In this document: piece by piece, positions 45 through 60,509 of the stretch
How the letters are laid out: every line of letters begins with the position of its first letter
Position numbering within the stretch: position 1 is the stretch's first letter
Assembly: GCA_964510315.1 (NCBI GenBank)
Contig: CAZEAP010000011.1
Location: 22,985 to 86,984 of the forward strand
Reading direction: 5' to 3'
Source of the DNA: an uncultured candidatus Brocadiaceae bacterium
GTDB taxonomy: Bacteria; Planctomycetota; Brocadiia; SM23-32
DNA: 64,000 bases
Program-made: the position numbers and the translations under genes
The notes under the pieces: model-generated
The model's database searches: none
What the model saw: only the letters and a program-made list of their open reading frames with translations
Told to the model about the DNA's origin: nothing

Positions 45-2147
45 ATGAATAGAACGGCCGTCATCCTCCTGATCGTCATCCTGGCCTTCCTTGGACTATT
101 CCTCTTCTATCCCCTCGCCTACTCCTGCCGGGGAGCTTTCTTCGACGGAACGCTGCTGCTCAAAAGCGGCGACGTGCGGGACTGGCCGGCTTTCGCCCGG
201 AAGCTGATCCGGAAGGACGTCGGACCGGCGCCGAAGATACGGGCTCCCCTCTCCCGGGAGACCCGCGACCTGCTCCGCGAGGTAGCGAAGGGCCGGGACC
301 CGACCGAGGTGGAGAGGGCTCGTCTGATGGAGGCCCTCAACGCCGTCCTCAAGGAGAAGCTCCTCTATGACCCGGCGGCTTTTGCCGGTGTGCGGATTCC
401 GACGGACGTAAAGGCAGAGCTGCAACAGGAGCGGGAAGAACGCACCCCGGGCGAGGTGATCCGGATAAATCGCCGCTTGCTGGAGGCGGCCTTCCCCCGC
501 ACCATCGAGAGACTGCTTTTCGACAGCGGGCACTTCACCCTGCGGTTCTTCAAGTATTTCTACACCGACACCCTCACGCGGCAGTCCATCCTGAACAGCC
601 TGGCCCTCGGCGCCATCGTGACGGTGCTGACCGGAGCGATCGCGCTGCCCCTTTCCCTGCTGATGGTTCGATACAGCTTCCCGGCGAAGGGGCTGCTGAC
701 CGGCCTGCTCCTGCTGCCCATGATCATGCCGCCCTTCGTGGGGGCGATCGGGATGCGCCAGGTGCTGGCCCGTTTCGGCTCGCTGAATCTCCTGCTGATC
801 CGCTGGGGACTCGTTCAAAGCCCCATTGACTGGCTGGGCGGGGCACGTTTCTGGGGAGTGGTCATCATGGAGGTGCTGCACCTCTACCCGATCATGTATC
901 TGAACTTCGCAGCCGCCCTGGCCAACGTCGATCCGGCCCTGGAGGAAGCCGCCGTCAACCTCGGCTCCAGCGGAGGGCGCCTGTTCCGGCGCATCACGCT
1001 TCCGCTGATGATGCCCGGGCTGTTCGCCGGCTCGGTGATTGTTTTCATATGGGCCTTCACCGACCTGGGCACGCCGCTGGTGTTTGGCTACACGCGGGTG
1101 GTGCCGGTGCAGATTTTCAACCAGGTCATCGACCTCTCCAACAACCCCCAGGGTTATGCCCTGGTGGTCGGGGTGCTGGCGCTGACGCTCCTGATCTTCC
1201 TCGGCGCGAAGCGGCTGTTTGGGCTGCGCGCCTACCAGTCGCTCACCCGGGGTCCGACGCAGGGCCAGGAGAAGAAAGCCGGGCGGTTGGGTTCGGTCCT
1301 CATCGTGGGCTTTGTGCTGGGCGTGGTGGCGCTGGCCTGCGTGCCGCACGCCGCCGTAGTGCTGACCGCGCTGAAGGACAAGTGGTTCATGACCGTCCTG
1401 CCGGGAAGCTACACGCTGGGGCACTTCGAGGCCGCCCTCGGGCACCAGCTCACCCTCTCCAGCATCCGCAACAGCATCTTCTACAGCGGTCTGAGCACAC
1501 TGCTGGACCTGGGGCTGGGGGTAATCATCGCCTACCTGCTGGTGCGGCACGCCTTCCGGGGCTCGCAGGTCCTGGACGCCCTGGTGATGCTGCCGTTGGC
1601 CATACCGGGCCTGGTGCTGGCCTTCGGCTACGTGGCCGCCTTCTCCAGCGTGCCCCCGGAGACGGTGGGAAATCCGCTCCTGCGCTGGCTGGTGATCTGC
1701 CGGAATGCGCTGGATCCCCGGGACAACCCCATGGCCCTGCTCGTGGTGGCCTACGCCGTGCGGCGGCTGCCCTACATGGTGCGGGCGGCCTACGCGGGCT
1801 TCCAGCAGGTGAGCGTCCGGCTCGAGGAGGCCGCCGTCAACCTGGGCTCGCCGCCCCTGAAGGCGATGCTCCGGGTGACCGCTCCCCTGCTGAGCGCCAA
1901 CCTGGTGGCCGGCGGGATACTGGTCTTCTCCTTCGCCATGTTGGAGGTGAGCGACAGCCTGATACTGGCCATGCAGGAGCAGTTCTACCCCATCACGAAG
2001 GCCATCTACACGTTGATCCAGCGCATCGAGGACGGCCCCTACATCGCAAGCGCGCTCGGCGTGTGGGCCATGGTGTTCCTGGGCGTGTCCCTGGTGGCGG
2101 CGGGCCTGCTGCTGGGCAGGAACATGGGACGCCTGTTCCGGGCGTAG
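45..2147 (+). CDS. ABC transporter permease with two fused transmembrane domains (iron(III)/thiamine FbpB/ThiP-like); a ~140-aa insertion follows TM1
   Basis: 700-aa ORF. Both halves carry the binding-protein-dependent permease signature loop (AALANVDPALEEAAVNLGSS in the first half; QQVSVRLEEAAVNLGSP in the second) and multiple hydrophobic helices. ATG at 45. No partner solute-binding protein or ATPase lies inside the window. Confidence 0.8.
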   Translation: MNRTAVILLIVILAFLGLFLFYPLAYSCRGAFFDGTLLLKSGDVRDWPAFARKLIRKDVGPAPKIRAPLSRETRDLLREVAKGRDPTEVERARLMEALNAVLKEKLLYDPAAFAGVRIPTDVKAELQQEREERTPGEVIRINRRLLEAAFPRTIERLLFDSGHFTLRFFKYFYTDTLTRQSILNSLALGAIVTVLTGAIALPLSLLMVRYSFPAKGLLTGLLLLPMIMPPFVGAIGMRQVLARFGSLNLLLIRWGLVQSPIDWLGGARFWGVVIMEVLHLYPIMYLNFAAALANVDPALEEAAVNLGSSGGRLFRRITLPLMMPGLFAGSVIVFIWAFTDLGTPLVFGYTRVVPVQIFNQVIDLSNNPQGYALVVGVLALTLLIFLGAKRLFGLRAYQSLTRGPTQGQEKKAGRLGSVLIVGFVLGVVALACVPHAAVVLTALKDKWFMTVLPGSYTLGHFEAALGHQLTLSSIRNSIFYSGLSTLLDLGLGVIIAYLLVRHAFRGSQVLDALVMLPLAIPGLVLAFGYVAAFSSVPPETVGNPLLRWLVICRNALDPRDNPMALLVVAYAVRRLPYMVRAAYAGFQQVSVRLEEAAVNLGSPPLKAMLRVTAPLLSANLVAGGILVFSFAMLEVSDSLILAMQEQFYPITKAIYTLIQRIEDGPYIASALGVWAMVFLGVSLVAAGLLLGRNMGRLFRA

Positions 2148-2545
2148 GCGCCGGAGTTCCCAAACCGCCGGTCTGCTGCAAATGCGCCGCTCGCGGGCAG
2201 GGCTGTCACGCTAAACGCATACGGGGGCGTCAGACCGAGAAGACAAGCACACGACCGTATTGCGTGCCGGGAACCGAAAGCTACTTCTGAGTCATCCCCA
2301 GTTTGTCCCGACCAAACTGGCTGCGTGCCCGGGCCCGGCTGAGAAACAGGGCGTCCCTGGAAGCTTATGCGCCGTCGGGGGGGCGTCGGCGTCCCAGCTC
2401 CATCCAGAGCCCACCGGCGACGGGGTTAAGCAGTTTGAGGTAAATGCGTTCCAGTTGCCAAACGCTACCTCGCGGGGATGCTTCCCCTCATCGGGTAGGT
2501 CCGGCGTCCCCGCCGTTGCGCCGCGGAGCGGCGCGGTCATGAAGG

Positions 2546-2812
2546 CCAGGGCTTCAGCCCTGGTGCTTCACGGCAAAAACCCAATTGCGCCCCGGAGGGG
2601 CGCGGTGAGGCATGCGATGCGCAAAAGCCTGACCAACCTGCTGTATCACATCATGTTCGCAACAGGAGAGCAACGACGCGCTCTCACGCCGCGGCATCGC
2701 ATTCGTTGAGCGCGACCTGCGGCGCTGACCCGACCGCGCCCCTCCGGGGCGCACAATTAGCTTACATGCGCCGGCAACCGGGGCTAAAGCCCCGGCCTCC
2801 ATCACATGGCCC
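2546..2812. repeat. Cluster of GC-rich REP-like hairpins: hairpin ccagggcttcagccctgg at 2546-2563; perfect 20-nt inverted repeat gcgccccggaggggcgcggt (2587-2606) / accgcgcccctccggggcgc (2733-2752); ~37-nt core aaccggggctaaagccccggcctccatcacatggccc at 2776-2812
   Basis: Read directly from the sequence. The 2776-2812 core recurs in inverted orientation at 58569-58605 with one mismatch in the loop. The region has no credible long ORF. Confidence 0.7.
2617..2709 (+). pseudogene. Possible decayed remnant of a Y1 (IS200/RAYT-like) transposase N-terminus lying between the inverted hairpins
   Basis: The translation ...MRKSLTNLLYHIMFATGEQRRAL... loosely resembles the conserved (G)ALYHV(M/T)xRGNxRQxIF start of PF01797-type transposases. 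It is only ~30 aa long and is flanked by the REP-like palindromes. Weak call. Confidence 0.2.
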
Positions 2813-3119
2813 CTGCGGGGCCGGCGCATTCCCGGAACCGTTGCCCGCAAACCGTGCCAGCAGACGGGCCAGGTGCGTTGAACCGAACGAAGAGATTCTT
2901 CGCTCGCTGAAAGGTGCGCTCGCTCAGAAAGATATCCTGGGCGGCAGCCCCGGGACTCAGGGAGCGCAAGAAAGAAACGCCGCCGTGAAGGGGCGGCATG
3001 GACGCTGACGGCATACGGCCATCCCGGTCCGGCTCTGAGGGGGTCTTTTTGCGACCGGCCGGAGAAATGCTCCCCAAAACCGGGGATGACTCAAAAGCTA
3101 CTTGTCTTGACGCGCATAG

Positions 3120-3863
3120 TCACTTGACCGACACCTCCAGCCCCTCCGGGTCGATCACGGCGTTCAGGCTCGCCCGCAATGCCCCCGAATCGCGGACGAA
3201 CGCCAGGTAGTCTTCGAGTTTCTCGGCGGAGTTCACGCTGTTGTGCGCGAGCACGATTCCGTCCGGAGGGATCCGCTCCCAGGCGGCCTCCAGGATATCC
3301 AGGTAGATCGCCTTCCCCCGGCCGCCCGCGCCGTCCGCATCCAGGTAAAGCAGGTCTATCGGCTCCCCGAATTCCGCCACGAAGGAGACGGCGTCGTCGG
3401 CCACGATGCGGGCGACGCCGGTTGGATCGATGCGGCGGACGTTGCGCTCCGCCCGGTCGGCCTCCTCCTCACGGATTTCCACTCCCACCAGGTTCTCAGC
3501 GGTGTAGCATGCTCCGGGCCCGACGGCCGCACCGGCGTTGCAGATGAAGGTGAACCCGCAGAATATCCCGGCAGCGATCATGTTCGCCGGCCGGCTCACC
3601 GCGTTGACGGCGTAGATCAGGCGTTCCATCCTCGGAGTTATGGCCGTCCACGGCACCTCGAAAAGTTCCCGGACGGCCCGGCGGTGGGCCGTCAACTTCT
3701 CCTGGTCGTAATCGGCGTGCGGGAGGATTTCCGCGTCCACCAGCTCGCGCAGCACCTCATCCACGACCTCCGCTTCCCTCGCCGGGGGCTCCAGCTCCCG
3801 GTACGGCTCGCGGTAGTCCATCCGGTAGCTATCCCAGTCTTCGGCACGGTAACTTTCGCTCAT
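3120..3863 (-). CDS. Class I SAM-dependent O-methyltransferase (OMT family 3-like)
   Basis: 247 aa with a motif I-like VGVEIREEE and a DLLYLDADGAGGRGKAIYLDILEAAWERIPPDGIVLAHNS block, matching the DxxFIDADK...Y...L.pGG...DN pattern of small-molecule OMTs. Confidence 0.65.
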   Translation of the reverse strand: MSESYRAEDWDSYRMDYREPYRELEPPAREAEVVDEVLRELVDAEILPHADYDQEKLTAHRRAVRELFEVPWTAITPRMERLIYAVNAVSRPANMIAAGIFCGFTFICNAGAAVGPGACYTAENLVGVEIREEEADRAERNVRRIDPTGVARIVADDAVSFVAEFGEPIDLLYLDADGAGGRGKAIYLDILEAAWERIPPDGIVLAHNSVNSAEKLEDYLAFVRDSGALRASLNAVIDPEGLEVSVK

Positions 3864-5044: not shown

Positions 5045-6070
5045 ATGAGCGATGAGCCGACCGACGTCTGCGTCTACGCCGAGACGGTCGAGGGAGCCGT
5101 CGCCGAGGTCAGCCTGGAGCTGACCCACAAGGCACGTGAACTGGCCGCCGAGCTGGGCGGCGAGGTCGGCGCGTTTCTTCTCGGCGACTCCGTCTCCCAT
5201 CTGGCGGAAGACCTCTTCGCGCACGGCGCCGACGAGGTGGTGGTCGCGGAACACCCCGAACTCGGCAACTATCGCACGCTCCCTTACGCGGACATGCTCT
5301 CGAAGATGATACGCGCCAACGAGCCGGCCGTGGTGCTTTTCGGGGCCACTACGACCGGCCGCGACCTGGCCCCTCGCGTCGCCTCCATCCTGAAGGTCGG
5401 CCTCACGGCCGACTGCACCGACCTGAAGATCGGACCCCACAAGGACCTGGTGAAGGGCAAGGAGTATCCCCGGCTTCTCTACCAGATACGGCCCGCCTTC
5501 GGGGGCAACATCATCGCCACCATCGTCAACCCGGAGACCAGGCCCCAGATGGCCACCGTCCGGGAGGGCGTGATGAAGATGGGCGCCCCCGATCCGGATC
5601 GGGAAGGCCGCCTGACCCGGTTCGACGGCTCTCCCGATGAAGCCCTGCTCGCCGTCGAGGTGCTGGAGGAATTCCGGGCGGAGCGGACCGTGGACCTGAA
5701 GAAAGCCAACGTCATCGTCAGCGGCGGGGCCGGGGTGGGCAGCGAGGAGAACTTCGAGCTGATCCGACGGCTGGCCGATACGCTGGGCGGTCAGGTAGGC
5801 GCCTCCCGGGCCGCCGTGGACGCCGGCTTCATCGGCAAAGAGCACCAGGTCGGCCAGACCGGCACCACCGTCCGGCCGAAGCTCTACGTGGCCTGCGGAA
5901 TCAGCGGAGCGGTCCAGCACCGGGCCGGCATGCAGGAATCCAGCGAAATCGTGGCCATCAACACCGACCCCGACGCGCCCATATTCGACGTTGCCCACTA
6001 CGGCATCGTGGGGGACCTGAACGAAGTCATCCCAATTCTAATCGACGCCTACAAGGAACACGCCAGGTGA
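5045..6070 (+). CDS. etfA: Electron transfer flavoprotein alpha subunit
   Basis: 341 aa. The C-terminal FAD-binding region reads VIVSGGAGVGSEENFELIRRLADTLGGQVGASRAAVDAGF...QVGQTGTTVRPKLYVACGISGAVQH, typical of EtfA. Confidence 0.9.
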   Translation: MSDEPTDVCVYAETVEGAVAEVSLELTHKARELAAELGGEVGAFLLGDSVSHLAEDLFAHGADEVVVAEHPELGNYRTLPYADMLSKMIRANEPAVVLFGATTTGRDLAPRVASILKVGLTADCTDLKIGPHKDLVKGKEYPRLLYQIRPAFGGNIIATIVNPETRPQMATVREGVMKMGAPDPDREGRLTRFDGSPDEALLAVEVLEEFRAERTVDLKKANVIVSGGAGVGSEENFELIRRLADTLGGQVGASRAAVDAGFIGKEHQVGQTGTTVRPKLYVACGISGAVQHRAGMQESSEIVAINTDPDAPIFDVAHYGIVGDLNEVIPILIDAYKEHAR

Positions 6071-6086: not shown

Positions 6087-7820
6087 ATGCCCAATTTCTT
6101 CACCGACAACGAAGACATCGTTGATTTTCTCGACCACACCGACCTCCGCCGGTTGGTGAGGCTCCAGGAGCGGAACTACGCCGAAGCGGACAGCTTCGGG
6201 TACGCCCCGGCCGATTACGCGGACGCCCTCGACAACTACCGGCGGGTCCTGGAGATGGTCGGGGAGCTGTCCGCCGAGTTCATCGCCCCCCGCGCCGAAG
6301 AGGTGGACGAGGAAGGCCCTCACCTGAGCGACGGGGAGGTCACTTACGCCCGGGGCACGCGTGAAGCGCTGGAGCAGCTCCGCAAAGCCGACCTGATGGG
6401 CTTTACCCTCCCCCGCCGTTACGGGGGCCTCAACATGCCGGTGCTCATCTACACCATCGCCATCGAACTGGTCAGCCGGGCCGACGCCAGCCTCATGAAC
6501 CTGTTCGGCCTCCAGGACATCGCCGAGACCATCAACAACTTCAGCGAGGAGGAGGTGAAGGAGGCCTACCTCCCCCGCTTCAGCAGCGGCGAGGTGACCG
6601 GCGCGATGGCCCTGACCGAGCCGGACGCGGGCAGCGACCTGACCAACGTGCAGGTGCGGGCCACGAAGGACTCCGACGACGGCCCATGGCGCCTCAACGG
6701 AGTCAAGCGGTTCATCACCAACGGCTGCGCCGAGGTGCTGCTGGTGCTGGCCCGCAGCGAACCCGAAACCAAGGGCGCCCGTGGGCTCTCCCTGTTTCTC
6801 TGCGAGTCGGGCACGGAAGTAAGGGTGCGGCGGATCGAGGAGAAGCTGGGCATCCACGGTTCCCCCACCTGCGAGCTGCAGTTCGTGAGCGCCCCCGCCC
6901 TGCTGATCGGCCGTCGCAAGCGCGGCCTCAGCACCTACGTGATGTCGCTGATGAACGGCGCCCGACTGGCCATCGCCGCCCAGGGCGTGGGCATCGCGCA
7001 GGCCGCCCTCAGTGAGGCACTCGACTACGCGGCGGAGCGGGAGCAATTCGGCCGGCCCATCCGGCAGTTCCCGGCGGTGCGCCGCATGCTGGGCGAGATG
7101 CACATGAAGGTGGAAACCTCCCGACTGCTCACCTACCAGACCGCCGTCGCCGTCGACATGGCCGACAACATCGACCACCTCCGCTCCAGCGGGGAACTGG
7201 AAGAACTGCCCGGAGGGGAGGAGCTGGCCGGGCAGCGGCGCTACTGGACTCAACTGGCCCGCTCCCTGACCCCCATCGCGAAGTATTACGCCACCGAAAT
7301 GTGCAATGAAGTCACCTACGACGCCCTCCAGGTGCTCGCCGGCAGCGGGTACATGCGGGACTACGAGGTGGAGCGGCTCTACCGCGACGCTCGCATCACC
7401 ACCATCTACGAGGGAACTACCCAGATCCAGCACAACGCCGCCATCGGCTACGTCATGAGGGGCACCCTGGAGGAAAGGTGTGCCGAGCTGCACGAGCAAC
7501 TGGCCGAGGCCGGTGGCGACCCCGGCATGCTGGAGGCGCTGGCGGACGCACGCCGCCGGCTGGCCGAAGCAATAGAATACACCCGGGAGCAGGAAGACGA
7601 TTTCAGGGACCTCCACGCCGGCGGCCTCGTCGAGGCGGCAACCACCATCTACAACGGATACCTCCTGCTGGAGCCCGCCGGGCGCTCGGAGCACAAAAAG
7701 GCGCTGGCTGAAGGCTACTTCGACGAATACCTCCCCAGGGTCAAGCTAAGATGCGACCAGATACTCAGCGGAAACCGCACCTACCTGGACCGCACGTCCG
7801 AACTGCTGGACTATGAATGA
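6087..7820 (+). CDS. Acyl-CoA dehydrogenase, long form with a C-terminal extension, partner of EtfAB
   Basis: 577 aa with ACAD motifs (GAMALTEPDAGSD; YDALQVLAGSGYMRDYEVERLYRDARITTIYEGTTQIQ). It lies immediately downstream of etfBA. Confidence 0.85.
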   Translation: MPNFFTDNEDIVDFLDHTDLRRLVRLQERNYAEADSFGYAPADYADALDNYRRVLEMVGELSAEFIAPRAEEVDEEGPHLSDGEVTYARGTREALEQLRKADLMGFTLPRRYGGLNMPVLIYTIAIELVSRADASLMNLFGLQDIAETINNFSEEEVKEAYLPRFSSGEVTGAMALTEPDAGSDLTNVQVRATKDSDDGPWRLNGVKRFITNGCAEVLLVLARSEPETKGARGLSLFLCESGTEVRVRRIEEKLGIHGSPTCELQFVSAPALLIGRRKRGLSTYVMSLMNGARLAIAAQGVGIAQAALSEALDYAAEREQFGRPIRQFPAVRRMLGEMHMKVETSRLLTYQTAVAVDMADNIDHLRSSGELEELPGGEELAGQRRYWTQLARSLTPIAKYYATEMCNEVTYDALQVLAGSGYMRDYEVERLYRDARITTIYEGTTQIQHNAAIGYVMRGTLEERCAELHEQLAEAGGDPGMLEALADARRRLAEAIEYTREQEDDFRDLHAGGLVEAATTIYNGYLLLEPAGRSEHKKALAEGYFDEYLPRVKLRCDQILSGNRTYLDRTSELLDYE

Positions 7821-9012: not shown

Positions 9013-10920
<1,908 letters not shown>

Positions 10921-10966
10921 CTCATCTTTCTCTGCCGGCCCACCCCTCGGGGAGGCATTGTGCCGA

Positions 10967-13597
10967 ATGCAGCTTGATCGCTTCACAGTAAAGGTCCGCG
11001 AGGCGCTGGAAGCCGCCCAGACCACCGCGCGCGGGCGGAATCACCAGCAGTTGGGAACGCTGCACCTGCTGCAGTCCATGCTCAATCAATCGGGGGGTGT
11101 GGCACGTCCCCTGCTGCAGCGCCTGGGGGCTAATCTGGAAGCCGTGACCCGTTCCGTCCAGGAGGAGCTGGAGAAACTGCCGCAGGTGGAGGGCGGCGCG
11201 GGACAGGTCTACCTCGGAGAGGACCTCAGGGAAGCCCTGGAGGAGGCCGAAAGTCAGGCCGCCGCCCTGAGGGACGACTACGTCAGCACCGAACACCTGC
11301 TGCTGGCGTTCCTGGAGAACCCGCAGTCGCCCGCCGGCAGGATTCTCCAGGAGCAGGGCGTCAGCCGCGAAGGACTGCTGGTCGCCCTCGAACAGGTCCG
11401 CGGCGGGCAGCGGGTCACCGATGAAAGTCCCGAGGACAAATACCAGGCCCTCGAACGCTACGCCCGCGACCTGGTCGAGATGGCCCGCCGCGACAAACTG
11501 GATCCCGTCATCGGGCGCGACCAGGAAATCCGCAAAGTCGTCCAGGTGCTGGGCCGCCGGACCAAGAACAACCCCGTCCTCACAGGAGACGCCGGCGTGG
11601 GCAAAACCGCCATCGTCGAGGGCCTCGCCCAGCGCATCCTCAACGGTGACGTGCCGGAGACGCTGAAAAACCGGCGAGTGCTCGCCCTCGACATGGGCGC
11701 TCTGGTGGCCGGCACCAAGTACCGCGGCGAATTCGAAGACCGCCTCAAAGCGGTGCTCCGGGAGATAGAATCCTCCGGCGACGTGATCCTGTTCATCGAC
11801 GAGCTGCACACCGTGGTCGGCGCCGGGGCGGCCGAGGGTGCGGTGGACGCCTCCAACCTCCTGAAACCCGCCCTGGCCCGCGGCGAACTCCACTGTGTCG
11901 GGGCGACCACGGTGGAGGAATACCGCAAGTACATCGAAAACGACGCGGCTCTGGAGCGACGGTTCCAGCCGGTCAAGGTCGAGGAGCCCAGCGTCGAGGA
12001 AACCGTCGCCATTCTGCGCGGGCTGAAGGAGCGCTACCAGGTGCATCACGGCGTGCGCATCACCGACAGCGCCCTTCTCGCCGCCGCCCGGCTGAGCGAC
12101 CGCTACATTACCGACCGCTTTCTGCCGGACAAAGCCATCGATCTCATGGACGAGGCCGCCTCCCGGCTGCGGATGGAAATCGACAGTGTCCCCACCGAAC
12201 TGGACCGCGTCCAGCGACGTATCACCCAACTGCAAATCGAGCTGGAGGGTCTTAAGAACGAGGAGGGAGACCAGGCACAGCAGCAGACGGAACGGGTGAA
12301 GAGCCTGCTGGCCGAAGCGGAGGAAGAGGAGAAGGCCCTCCGGGCGCAGTGGGAAACGGAGAAGGAACTGATCGGCCGCATCCGCGAGCTGAACGAACAA
12401 CTGGAAAAGGCTCATCTCCGGCAGCAGGCGGCCGAACGCGAGGGTGAACTCCAGAAAGTGAGCGAAATACGCTACGCCGAGATCCCCGAACTGGAGAGCG
12501 AGCTGGAACAGCAGCAGGAGAAACTGGAGGAAGTCCAGAGCGAACAGCAGCTCCTGAAAGAAGAGGTCGACAGCGAGGACATCGCCGAGATCGTCTCCCA
12601 CTGGACCGGCATCCCCGTTCAGAAGATGCTGGAGACCGAGCGGGAGAAGCTCCTCCACATGGAGGAGGAACTGGAGAAGCGCGTGGTCGGCCAGGAGGAG
12701 GCCATCCGGGCCGTGTCGCACACGGTCAGGCGGGCACGCGCAGGCCTGCAGGACCCCACCCGCCCGCTGGGCTCATTTATCTTCCTCGGCCCGACCGGTG
12801 TGGGGAAGACCGAGTTGTGCAAAGCGCTGGCCGAGTTCCTGTTCGACGACGAGGACGCACTGGTCCGGCTGGACATGAGCGAGTTCATGGAGCAGCACTC
12901 GGTGGCCCGACTAATAGGTGCTCCGCCCGGCTACGTAGGCTATGAGGAGGGAGGTCGGCTCACCGAGGCTGTCCGCCGCCGGCCCTACAGCGTCGTTCTG
13001 TTCGACGAGATAGAGAAGGCCCACCGAGATGTCTTCAACGCGCTTCTGCAGGTGCTGGACGACGGCCGCCTGACCGACGGCAAGGGCCGCACGGTGGACT
13101 TTAAGAACACCATCATCGTGATGACCTCCAACGTCGGCAGCGAATGTATCCACGAGCTGATGGGCGAGGCCGAACGCAGCGAGGTCCGCGGCCGTGTCAT
13201 GCAGGCGCTCCGTGAGCAGTTCCGTCCGGAGTTCCTCAACCGCATCGACGAGATCATCATCTTCAACGGCCTCTCCGAGGAACTGATGGAACGGATCACC
13301 GAGATCCAGATCGACCGCCTGCGCGAGCGCCTGGAGGAGAAGGACATCTCACTGGAAGTCACGCCGGCCGCCGTCGGACTGCTGGCCGGCGTTGGCTACG
13401 ATCCCGCGTACGGGGCCCGTCCCCTCCAACGCACCATACAGCGCATGGTGGACAATCCATTGGCCGAGAAGATGCTGGAGGGAGAGTTTCCGGAAGGCTG
13501 CACCGTCGTCGCCGACGCACTGGACGAAGAGATCATCCTGACCCGAAGGGATGAGGCCGAACTCCCGGCGGAACCGGCCGGCGGGGAGCAGCCATGA
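10967..13597 (+). CDS. clpB: ClpB disaggregase (two AAA+ modules plus a coiled-coil middle domain)
   Basis: The Clp N-domain, Walker A motifs ([13 protein letters not shown] and [15 protein letters not shown]) and a long coiled-coil middle domain are present. The ATG at 10967 has ggagg 11 nt upstream. The track's 10958 start is a TTG. Confidence 0.95.
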
Positions 13598-58156: not shown

Positions 58157-58383
58157 ACCGGTCCCTCCTCTGGCTGAATCCGTCAAACATCGCAAAGACC
58201 CCCTCCATCGGGAGGCAGGGCCTTGCCTGCCGTACCGTACGGCCTGGAGGGCCTGCCTGTCAACAGAGCGCACGGGGGCACTTGCACTATAAGGGAGCGT
58301 CATCGCTCACCGGAGGCAGCCCTATGCTGGCGACGGAAGGCCCTCGCAGGCTCTTTCACAACGGCGGTCATGACCGTTGCACC

Positions 58384-58760
58384 GCCTTTCTGATGATCGC
58401 CGTCAGGATGCCGATCAACTGATCCGCTTCGTCGAGTATCCGTTTGGCGTCCTGCCGGAGCGCTGCCGATCTATTGCGTCCGGCTGTCTCTGCCGGCCAT
58501 AATCTCGGCAGCCACGGGGTTCCCAAATGCCCGCAAGCCCGCCGCCCGGAACCTGGGCGGCCCCCCGGGGGCCATGTGATGGAGGCCGGGGCTTCAGCCC
58601 CGGTTTGCGGCTAAACATGTAATTCGTTGATCGGCCCGTCTGCGGCAGCGCCTTCCGCTTCGCCGGAGGCTTCGAGAAGCCTGAGCCAATACAGCGTCTC
58701 CCCGGCCTCCCTGCGGGGGATGGCATACTTAGCGATGAAGTCCGCGCGGCTCTGGGCGCT
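58384..58760 (-). pseudogene. Four-helix-bundle (23S rRNA IVS-type) protein gene remnant, split by the REP-like element
   Basis: Fragment 1 (58611-58745) translates ...ADFIAKYAIPRREAGETLYWLRLLEASG...; fragment 2 (58384-58480) translates ...RQDAKRILDEADQLIGILTAIIRKAVQRS*. Both resemble the C-terminal helices of four-helix-bundle proteins. The intervening 58480-58610 holds the ccggggcttcagccccgg core repeat. No intact N-terminus. Confidence 0.4.
58569..58605. repeat. Inverted copy of the ~37-nt REP-like core found at 2776-2812
   Basis: gggccatgtgatggaggccggggcttcagccccggtt is the reverse complement of aaccggggct(a>g)aagccccggcctccatcacatggccc, with one mismatch. Confidence 0.8.
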
Positions 58761-59117
58761 TACTGGGCGGGTTCCGGCGCACTGAAGACGCGGAGTGTTG
58801 CTAAAGCCAGAACCGTTACGACAGAAGCACCAGCGGCGAAAGTGCCTTCGCCGTGGCAAGAGAGCGTGTAGCCTCCGGCCCCGTAAGCGAGGAGGGCGAA
58901 GAGACCGGGCAGCAAAACCCACCGACCCCGGAATTCGAGCTTCCATCCTGCGAAACGGGACATCCTTTGTGTCCTCCCTTGCTAATGTGAACGACTCCGC
59001 CGGGTGCGCCGAGCGCCTTCAAAACCTGAGAAGCCCACCTGCTTGTCCACGACGCATCCACCAAACACCTCGCGGATTCTGCGCCTCCCGCGCACCTGCC
59101 GGGTAGAGGCACCGCAT

Positions 59118-59741: not shown

Positions 59742-60509
59742 TTATGAGACAAGCTGCGTGGCAACCAATAATCTTCGCAATGTCCGCCAGCTTGCTGTCA
59801 GAAAAGTGGACAGCCGAGATCCCACCAGAACGCCTGAAGGGCACGCAGGAACCACCCGTGCACCCAGGGGCACTTCCCGCCCCGTACGCTCCACACTGGC
59901 ACTGCTGGGCCGCATCCAAAGCCAGGCAGCAGCCGCTGTAACACTCCTTCGCCGGAGCACCCGCTCGCAGGCAGTGGGTGAAGCACAGATCCCAGAGTTC
60001 GTCGATAGAAAGGATAACCCTACCACGTGACCCTGATCGTCCCGATCGAGTGTCCTCAATCCCGTCGGGTCGGTAGAGCTACTCGGCGAGTTGAGGACGT
60101 AAGCGTAGGGGTTGTGCCAGCTATGGTAGCCGCTCGGGTCGCGTTGCAGGAAGCGGCCGAGGTCGGGGGCGTATTCGCGGTGGCGGAATTGCATCACTCC
60201 CGCCGCCACTTCCAGCCGGCGGGACTGGAAGAGGTACGGGTTCTCTACATCCGAGAGGCCGTCCGTATCCTCCGTGCCATCGGCGTCCAGGACGGTGGTC
60301 TCGCCATAGGCGGTGTGGCGATACCGCTCCACGACCGACTCATCTGTATTTGAAAGAGCGAAGATGCTGTAGATGGTGCTCGAGTGATAATACACCACCT
60401 CGCCGGCGTCGGCAAAGTCACCGTCCGTGTTGAGGTCTCTCTCCTGACGGGCCGGACTGTCTGCTGCTATCCTTTCTGCCAGCTGGTAGCTACAAAATGA
60501 TTGCCACAT
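59742..60509 (-). pseudogene. Orphan Rhs C-terminal cassette #2 (RHS core tip ending DPTGL plus variable C-terminal region); probably frameshifted
   Basis: ...YRHTAYGETTVLDADG...QFRHREYAPDLGRFLQRDPSGYHSWHNPYAYVLNSPSSSTDPTGL is the Rhs core terminus. No upstream YD-repeat shell. The cysteine-rich tail continues in another frame (ORF 59656..59919). Confidence 0.6.

Follow-up and report, generated by a model that had tools for sequence, protein, structure and literature searches.

The window analysed here is a stretch of 64,000 nucleotides (nt; G+C = 65%) from an uncultured candidatus Brocadiaceae bacterium (contig CAZEAP010000011.1, positions 22,985 to 86,984 of the forward strand), and the element in question is a GC-rich hairpin repeat that occurs near both ends of it. 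The left locus occupies part of the 970 bp that separate an ABC-transporter permease gene (45-2147, plus strand) from a methyltransferase-domain gene (3120-3863, minus strand), and holds the remains of a Y1 (HUH) transposase gene enclosed by hairpins. The right locus, at 58.5 kb, is a single copy of the repeat inside a pseudogene. A preliminary description of this DNA had reported a 37-nt core at both places, differing by one mismatch, and a related hairpin at 2546-2563; all are present at the coordinates given. The core occupies 2776-2812 on the plus strand and 58569-58605 on the minus strand, and the single mismatch is a loop base, A versus G. Within the window the exact core occurs at these two sites only, and 100 dinucleotide-preserving shuffles contain no match to it.

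The core is a portion of a 50-nt module. Two hairpins, HP1 and then HP2, make up this module together with the 12-nt linker between them (CCTCCATCACAT); HP1 has a GC stem of 8 bp and a GAA-type loop, HP2 a stem of 6-7 bp. The window has three full modules, of which A (2516-2565) and C (58556-58605) are on the minus strand and B (2776-2825) is on the plus strand. The hairpin at 2546-2563 (CCAGGGCTTCAGCCCTGG) is HP1 of the complete minus-strand module A, a third full module, and the left locus is therefore an inverted module pair. In module A, HP1 (CCAGGGCTGAAGCCCTGG) is followed by the linker at 2535-2545 and HP2 at 2518-2534 (GCGCCGC TCC GCGGCGC). Module B has HP1 at 2778-2795, the linker at 2796-2807 and HP2 at 2808-2822 (GGCCCC TGC GGGGCC); it forms the middle of a right arm (2762-2841, plus strand) that begins with a TTACATG lead-in and ends in a short conserved tail (..TTCCCGGAACCGT). 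Copy C is a solo copy of the right-arm type (58556-58622, minus strand), with HP1 at 58586-58603, the linker at 58574-58585, HP2 at 58559-58573 and the TTACATG lead-in up to 58622. A covariance model, R1, was built from 20 modules, among them A, B and C of the window. Scanned over the whole window with filters off, R1 scores A at 68.7, B at 63.5 and C at 61.3 bits, and beyond these three and two inner half-modules it finds nothing above noise. A terminator or attenuator role for the modules was considered and set aside, since the window copies lack a T-run downstream of HP1 or HP2.

The left locus is symmetric. Module A (minus strand), an inner hairpin, 126 nt, a second inner hairpin and module B (plus strand) follow one another, with A and B pointing outward. 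The perfect inverted repeat noted before in this region is there, only its length is 21 nt and not 20 (2586-2606 / 2733-2753, with 126 nt between the arms). Its arms coincide with the two inner half-modules found by R1, each of which corresponds to the linker tail plus HP2. The left one (2586-2608, minus strand; 21.6 bits, model positions 27-48) is made of the hairpin GCGCCCC GGA GGGGCGC and GGTGA and lies directly upstream of the start codon of the remnant. The right one (2733-2753, plus strand; 19.3 bits) is made of ACC and the hairpin GCGCCCC TCC GGGGCGC and follows immediately on the stop codon of the remnant. The region 2510-2835, taken as single-stranded DNA, has a far better fold than its shuffles (z = -7.6); alternatively, the two inner hairpins can unite in one 21-bp stem.

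The 21-nt inverted repeat encloses the first 28 and the last 12 codons of a Y1 transposase gene. The first part lies in a residual open reading frame (ORF) of 30 codons at 2617-2709 (plus strand), which reads MRKSLTNLLYHIMFATGEQRRALTPRHRIR, as had been given before. Codons 1-28 (2617-2700) correspond to the N-terminus of an IS200-like Y1 transposase (MRKSLTNLLYHIMFATGEQRRALTPR...); past a deletion junction the ORF is out of frame and runs into a stop at 2707-2709. The second part is in another frame at 2690-2728 (plus strand; RGIAFVERDLRR, stop at 2726-2728) and matches ...HGIDYDERYLWT at the end of the intact protein. This intact protein is encoded in L057, a Candidatus Brocadiia metagenome-assembled genome (MAG) locus that was recovered by scanning one genome per species for HP1 and its 3' flank. 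Positions 7041-7694 of L057 form an intact unit with the same symmetric hairpin layout round a 146-aa ORF, which matches Pfam Y1_Tnp (E = 3.7e-26) and NCBIfam transpos_IS200 (NF033573) at 81.8 bits, with a cutoff of 55.

Two separate local pairwise alignments, one per end, relate the window to L057 at the DNA level. Window 2518-2699 aligns to L057 7041-7220 (blastn E = 1e-25), and window 2692-2841 aligns to L057 7542-7694 (E = 7e-16). Within these, module A corresponds to L057 7041-7088, the region of the C-terminal remnant (2692-2753) to 7542-7603 and the right arm to 7604-7694. Nothing in the window corresponds to L057 7221-7541, about 322 bp, and with this deleted part three motifs are gone: HUH (DHVH), WQ and catalytic tyrosine (YIDRQEHHH). 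Both alignments include window positions 2692-2699 (plus strand; CGGCATCG), and this overlap of 8 nt suggests a deletion between short similar sequences.

At the protein level, the N-terminal remnant peptide is 61% identical to residues 1-28 of the L057 protein (tblastn E = 5.9e-6; blastp-short E = 1.9e-7). A family hidden Markov model (HMM) of 120 sequences, searched against the six frames of the window, gives the N-terminal remnant as its sole match (E = 1.1e-3) and reveals no intact Y1 gene in the 64 kb. The C-terminal peptide is 58% identical to residues 134-145 of 146; with E = 0.38 this match is not significant alone, but it is positionally exact. Pfam and NCBIfam scans of the 30-56-aa fragments return no Y1 family and only a sub-threshold CHAD match, which we attribute to the short length of the fragments. 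The faint likeness of 2617-2709 to Y1 transposases proposed in the preliminary description thus goes unseen by generic profiles at 30 aa and is borne out by the targeted comparisons. The 50-nt two-hairpin module, the completeness of module A and the second frame at 2690-2728 as the C-terminal end of the gene go beyond that description.

Copy C has neither a partner arm nor a transposase remnant. Its homology to module B runs from 2762-2823 against 58622-58558, covers the right arm only and includes an HP2 of the right-arm type. As had been supposed, copy C interrupts a four-helix-bundle pseudogene (23S rRNA intervening-sequence type; 58371-58769, minus strand) near an Rhs gene. Only the C-terminal half of the gene is present, as two in-frame pieces (58769-58644 and 58463-58371), and copy C lies inside the 180-nt gap between them (58643-58464). 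The spliced pieces score 32.7 bits against TIGR02436 (cutoff 24) and match profile positions 47-107 of 109 in one stretch, while the first piece alone scores 24.4 bits. The pseudogene also matches PDB entry 2rld_A (E = 7.6e-5) and Pfam PF05635 (E = 0.003). It is a pseudogene irrespective of copy C, since its N-terminal half is missing. Rhs-type toxin sequence starts about 1.1 kb from copy C, and the Rhs-associated core gene at 59742-60509 (minus strand; TIGR03696, 63.2 bits) ends in a ..DPTGL motif.

Intact homologous units are present in Candidatus Brocadiia MAGs and in metagenome contigs, and the EtfA of the window is about 80% identical to proteins from Candidatus Brocadiia and Planctomycetota MAGs. 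The nested layout seen in L057 also surrounds homologous genes in L117 (77% protein identity), L118 (63%) and L120 (59%). A gene-less state is found in L083 (3365-3590, minus strand), which belongs to the same MAG as L057 (JAWODG01): the four hairpin elements are there with 32 nt between the inner pair, and the transposase gene is absent. The right arm of the window aligns to L083 with 82% identity (E = 1e-19). The units of the window, L057 and L083 are only about 75-80% identical overall, yet they share the inner 20-mer hairpin without a single difference (100% identity), and a sequence-specific role is thereby indicated. All 10 homologous transposase loci examined have R1 modules at most about 150 nt from the gene; three of these loci (L125, L127 and L129) are independent, having been fetched after R1 was built. 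Upstream of the gene, the module closest to it is on the minus strand in nine of these ten loci; downstream, the closest one is on the plus strand in seven.

Gene-less inverted doublets occur in L118 (839-970, 9 kb from the gene) and L125 (3165-3408, 1.8 kb from the gene), and L013 probably carries one as well. HP1 of the L118 doublet (CCAGCGCTGAAGCGCTGG) is unlike HP1 beside the transposase gene of that locus (CCTGGGGCTGAAGCCCCAGG), suggesting more than one module sub-family in one genome. Over 20 modules, pairing extends to 95.4% of the cells, and compensatory changes are seen in 9 of 14 pairs. None of 500 shuffles attains the observed covariation score, and slid controls reach only 34-52% pairing. 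Both hairpins are under structural selection. The modules at all ten related transposase genes and the gene-less doublets in other genomes make the repeat a family, as the preliminary description had suggested, and not a local duplication.

The GTAG tetranucleotide is the defining foot of repetitive extragenic palindromic (REP) sequences (Di Nocera et al. 2013; Quentin et al. 2018, PMC6006769). On the complementary strand, HP1 followed by GGCCTACAT reads as a hairpin with this canonical 5' foot. In this lineage the foot has the form G-N-A-G. It is GAAG in module A, 5' of HP1 on the plus strand, and GGAG in modules B and C, that of B being on the minus strand; in both A and B it is gene-distal. 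In relatives (L121, L122, L123 and copies from Acidobacteriota and Desulfobacterota) it is GTAG. When read on the other strand, the copies of Isosphaeraceae, Acidobacteriota and Thermodesulfobacteriota show it as ATGTAG-GCCGGGGC....

The pattern of HP1 plus foot is found in at least 104 genome stretches from Acidobacteriota, Thermodesulfobacteriota and Brocadiia, and the matches to the loose pattern come mostly from a handful of MAGs with many copies each. Among the 104 loci listed, which were chosen by the pattern itself, there are 110 pattern matches and one transposase homologue, that of L057; tblastn of the transposase over these loci finds no other gene. With one in 104 listed loci, the repeats greatly outnumber the genes there, and no specific transposase can be assigned from these loci to the single-hairpin REPs of Acidobacteriota and Desulfobacterota. 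Under the two-hairpin model R1, single-hairpin copies score just 24-39 bits, which sets the two-hairpin form apart as a sub-family bound up with this transposase lineage. A stricter pattern scan of metagenomes gives 12 stretches, none with the Brocadiia-type HP2, so the exact variant of the window is rare in public data. The HP1 pattern has no match in a scan of viral contigs.

Some of the copies elsewhere are arranged differently. In an Acidobacteriota MAG (L086, around 5519-5683), tandem arrays with a period of 67 nt form a cluster like bacterial interspersed mosaic elements (BIMEs); the array unit holds two different hairpins, GGCGGCTCTTTAGAGCCGCC and CCGGGGCTGAAGCCCCGG, and then CCTACAT. 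Thermodesulfobacteriota/Desulfobacterales loci (L001, L016, L017, L043, L053, L067 and about 25 others) share a highly uniform composite repeat of about 75 nt, made of HP1 (CAGGGCTGAAGCCCTG), GCCTACATG ... CATGTAG as a second stem and the hairpin GCAGGGATTTATCCCTGC. It occurs on dozens of contigs of two MAGs, and no homologue of this transposase is found within the 8-kb loci.

The homologues of the transposase are labelled "REP element-mobilizing transposase RayT" by JGI and IS200/IS605 family transposases by NCBI. An alignment of 18 homologues shows that the intact relatives share DH[IV]H, WQ and Y---Q--HH motifs, a length of 146-150 aa and a conserved C-terminal tail. The gene would be of the RayT / COG1943 type and, by motifs and length, fall in subclass 1.2 of Quentin, Siguier, Chandler and Fichant (2018, PMC6006769). 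This is a motif-level assignment against Table 1 of that paper, made through the relatives, as the remnant in the window keeps residues 1-28 and the last 12 only. Subclass 1.2 was described there as low-copy and not IS-like, without REPs and without IS200-type end structures, and mainly from Cyanobacteria and Bacteroidetes.

The modules also touch an Rfam family, RF01687 (Acido-Lenti-1 RNA). Module A matches it at 26.6 bits (E = 5e-4) and so falls short of the gathering score, 37, whereas modules B and C give no match even at E up to 10, and no Rfam family reaches its gathering threshold anywhere in the window. Modules beside transposase genes pass the RF01687 threshold with 38.5-60 bits in seven of the ten loci (L118, L120, L122, L123, L125, L127 and L129). 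Weinberg et al. (2010) listed 89 representatives of the motif from Acidobacteria and Lentisphaerae, "sometimes near group II introns", and rated it a probable RNA; they reported neither a function nor an association with transposases. In their Additional file 4, the row NZ_ABCK01000001.1/417623-417178 (Lentisphaera araneosa) has two tandem copies of the motif. About 100 nt downstream of these copies is the start of an ORF like those of REP-associated tyrosine transposases (RAYTs), MSQSLCQNYVHIIFH... / MSQSLCQNYVHIIFHINF..., which resembles the N-termini of this Y1 family (E about 5e-5 in the 120-sequence database). Within the literature library searched, no paper was found to connect the Acido-Lenti-1 motif with Y1 transposases. 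In L118 a reverse-transcriptase gene (RVT_1, 10814-11686) lies immediately downstream of the transposase unit and recalls the remark of Weinberg et al. on group II introns. A cyclic di-AMP riboswitch (RF00379, 56.7 bits) at L122 16900-17069 (plus strand), upstream of an amino-acid permease gene, is unrelated to the modules.

Taken together, 2518-2841 is probably a decayed REPtron-like unit and the copy at 58.5 kb a solo REP. The reading is built on the anatomy of the locus, its homology to intact and gene-less units, the deletion, the covariation, the association of gene and modules and the position of copy C in the pseudogene, all of which are observed. As in REPtrons, a Y1 gene lies between repeats (its ends only in the window; intact in L057, L117, L118 and L120) and the repeats are inverted. 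The ancestral state would be a unit of about 650 bp with a gene for an IS200-like Y1 (HUH) transposase of 146-150 aa, bracketed by two nested inverted pairs, the inner GC hairpins at the start and stop codons and the outer 50-nt REP modules. An internal deletion of about 322 bp would then have taken the HUH and tyrosine motifs and left all four hairpin elements, and the copy at 58.5 kb would be a solo right-arm REP module set within the four-helix-bundle pseudogene. On single-stranded DNA, HP1 and its 5' foot are expected to fold into a structure bound by the Y1 transposase. The enzyme would cut nearby through a 5'-phosphotyrosine intermediate and rejoin the ends, and modules or inverted doublets might thereby be excised and reinserted. 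The mechanism is modelled on the biochemistry of E. coli TnpA-REP and IS608 TnpA; it is by this analogy that we infer that the enzyme binds and cleaves the repeats, in which direction and as what unit they move, and that they can be served in trans. Since the enzyme gene in the window is destroyed, present-day mobility could come only in trans, from an intact paralogue elsewhere in the genome.

Several observations weigh against this reading. Just 62-65 of the 180 nt that split the pseudogene, about one third, are homologous to copy B, which is too little to place the ends or the target site of a presumed insertion. The feet in the window are not the canonical GT[AG]G. The window has three modules in 64 kb, two of them within the remnant and one solo, and abundance throughout the genome, a defining property of REPs, is unproven here. 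The L057 protein scores 19.7 bits against NCBIfam REP_Tyr_transpos (NF047646), far from the cutoff of 80 for class 2 RAYTs, and the tyrosine motif of the relatives is the IS200-type Y---Q (YI..QE.HH) and not the Y---NP of RAYTs. In the window, L057, L083 and L117 alike, the left HP2 (CGCCGC..GCGGCG) differs consistently from the right HP2 (GGCCCC..GGGGCC), which resembles the defined ends of one transposable unit more than interchangeable REPs. This last point would suit an autonomous insertion sequence (IS) of the IS200 group, with the window and L083 as internal-deletion derivatives comparable to miniature inverted-repeat transposable elements (MITEs) and copy C as a broken-off right end. 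The size of the unit, its single 146-aa ORF and the 81.8 bits to the NCBIfam IS200/IS605 profile fit as well; few modules are seen per locus, and the units occupy unrelated gene neighbourhoods from genome to genome. However, IS200/IS605 elements have no inverted terminal symmetry and carry their end hairpins on the same strand (Quentin et al. 2018, PMC6006769), whereas here the arms are inverted, outer modules and inner hairpins alike. No near-identical multi-copy proteins were found among the homologues, the closest relatives being 77% and then at most 63% identical; nearly every homologue protein cluster is confined to one contig, a weak indication as MAG assemblies collapse repeats. Away from the gene, the modules are single, in tandem pairs or in doublets with different HP1s, and subclass 1.2 is itself described as low-copy and not IS-like (Quentin et al. 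2018, PMC6006769). We regard an autonomous IS200-group element as unlikely.

The modules could instead be genes for a small structured RNA, the Acido-Lenti-1 small RNA (sRNA), with their place beside a transposase incidental or regulatory. The scores of the seven related loci above the RF01687 gathering score, the 26.6 bits of copy A and the rating of the motif by Weinberg et al. (2010) speak for it, as does the strong covariation with a few G-U pairs tolerated only on the HP1-to-HP2 strand. Yet hairpins of single-stranded DNA predict equal covariation, the discoverers gave no function or gene association, and the window itself has no match at Rfam gathering thresholds. An RNA gene is also hard to square with mirror-oriented copies on either side of a DNA transposase gene, with tandem arrays, gene-less inverted doublets and a copy inside a disrupted ORF, or with a conserved linker that starts with CTAC, the complement of the GTAG foot of REPs. 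We consider an RNA gene improbable. The idea that chance or a mere local duplication produced the two distant copies, with no family behind them, can practically be dismissed. The exact core does occur at two window sites only, and the 12 metagenome stretches of the stricter pattern do not share its HP2; but the shuffles contain no match, the locus is syntenic with intact transposase units as in the L057 alignments, and homologous modules with compensatory substitutions occur in other genomes, including all ten transposase loci. The REP-like family with a Y1-transposase remnant put forward in the preliminary description is upheld by the DNA alignments to both ends of L057 and by significant tblastn and family-HMM matches.

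Two further features of the intergenic region lie outside the unit. Downstream of module B, weak GC hairpins at 2936-2953 and 2981-2995 are 78-80% similar to real HP1/HP2; with an R1 score of 5.7 bits, which is at noise level, they may be eroded older copies. A 21-nt inverted repeat with 19 of 21 positions complementary (2284-2304 / 3077-3097; CTTCTGAGTCATCCCCAGTTT / AAACCGGGGATGACTCAAAAG) encloses the intergenic island as a whole, its arms standing off from the remnant unit by about 212 and 236 nt. Its alignment score is 32, against 19 +/- 2.5 (maximum 27) in shuffles. Its 12-mer core has no other exact occurrence in the window or in any fetched locus, the 21-mer pattern has no match in the viral contig scan, and between 2150-2517 and 2842-3119 no extended inverted homology is found beyond the 21-mer pair. 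The pair could be terminal repeats, with a larger element between them, or two sites for a regulator.

Beyond the window, we lean towards the view that Acido-Lenti-1 is not an RNA gene but the cognate two-hairpin REP of TnpA-Y1 subclass 1.2, that the two make up a widespread unrecognised REPtron system in Planctomycetota, Acidobacteriota and Lentisphaerota, and that L057, the window and L083 form a series of decay into a doublet like those of REPINs (REP doublets forming hairpins). These wider claims, on Acido-Lenti-1 as a REP, on the repeats of subclass 1.2 and on the decay series, draw on ten loci and a motif-level classification and are offered as tentative. An orphan Rfam "small RNA" family would thereby be linked to a transposase, and RF01687 merits re-examination by curators as probably a transposase-recognised DNA repeat and not an sRNA. 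Subclass 1.2, which is without a known substrate, would gain a candidate DNA substrate, and the series of intact, partly deleted and empty units would bear on the proposed descent of REPIN-type doublets from IS200-like elements. For annotation, the 970-bp "empty" intergenic region and the disrupted pseudogene are probably ordinary selfish-DNA debris, and neither should be annotated as a gene or a regulatory RNA.

The feature belongs to a known kind, the systems of REPs and Y1 transposases, and the copy in the window is a fossil. Compared with the REP/RAYT systems of E. coli (TnpA-REP) and Pseudomonas (REPIN-RAYT), with their REPtrons, BIMEs and REPINs, it has in common a Y1 HUH gene between inverted hairpin repeats, a conserved tetranucleotide foot directed outward (head-head), and the same hairpins also as solo copies and gene-less inverted doublets, including inside ORFs. 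The foot of the relatives is the canonical GTAG and their HP1 ends in ..GGCCTAC, as E. coli REPs likewise do. It differs in that the enzyme is not a class 2 RAYT (Y---Q--HH versus Y---NP), the repeat combines two hairpins, the second of which is distinct between the left and the right arm, an extra pair of inner hairpins abuts the ORF, the window foot is GGAG or GAAG, and copy number appears low. With IS200/IS605 elements and their MITE-like derivatives, the palindrome-associated transposable elements (PATEs), it shares a Y1 transposase of the IS200 equivalog, a unit of about 650 bp, hairpins as presumptive single-stranded DNA recognition sites, and internal-deletion derivatives that retain the ends; unlike them, its ends are inverted and not co-oriented, there is no tnpB, and there is no sign of identical multi-copy elements. 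The relatives agree with TnpA-Y1 subclass 1.2 in the DH[IV]H, WQ and Y---Q--HH motifs, a length of about 148 aa, low copy number and a conserved C-terminal tail of about 30 aa (..LL.RHGIEYDERYLWD). That subclass was published as REP-less, whereas the putative members here come from Planctomycetota, Acidobacteriota and metagenomes and are flanked by REP-like modules in all ten loci. RF01687 resembles the module in its 8-bp hairpin, its 12-nt linker starting with GCUA(C) and its hairpin of 5-7 bp; the window copies are divergent from it, and its Rfam annotation is that of an sRNA gene without an assigned function or a link to a transposase.

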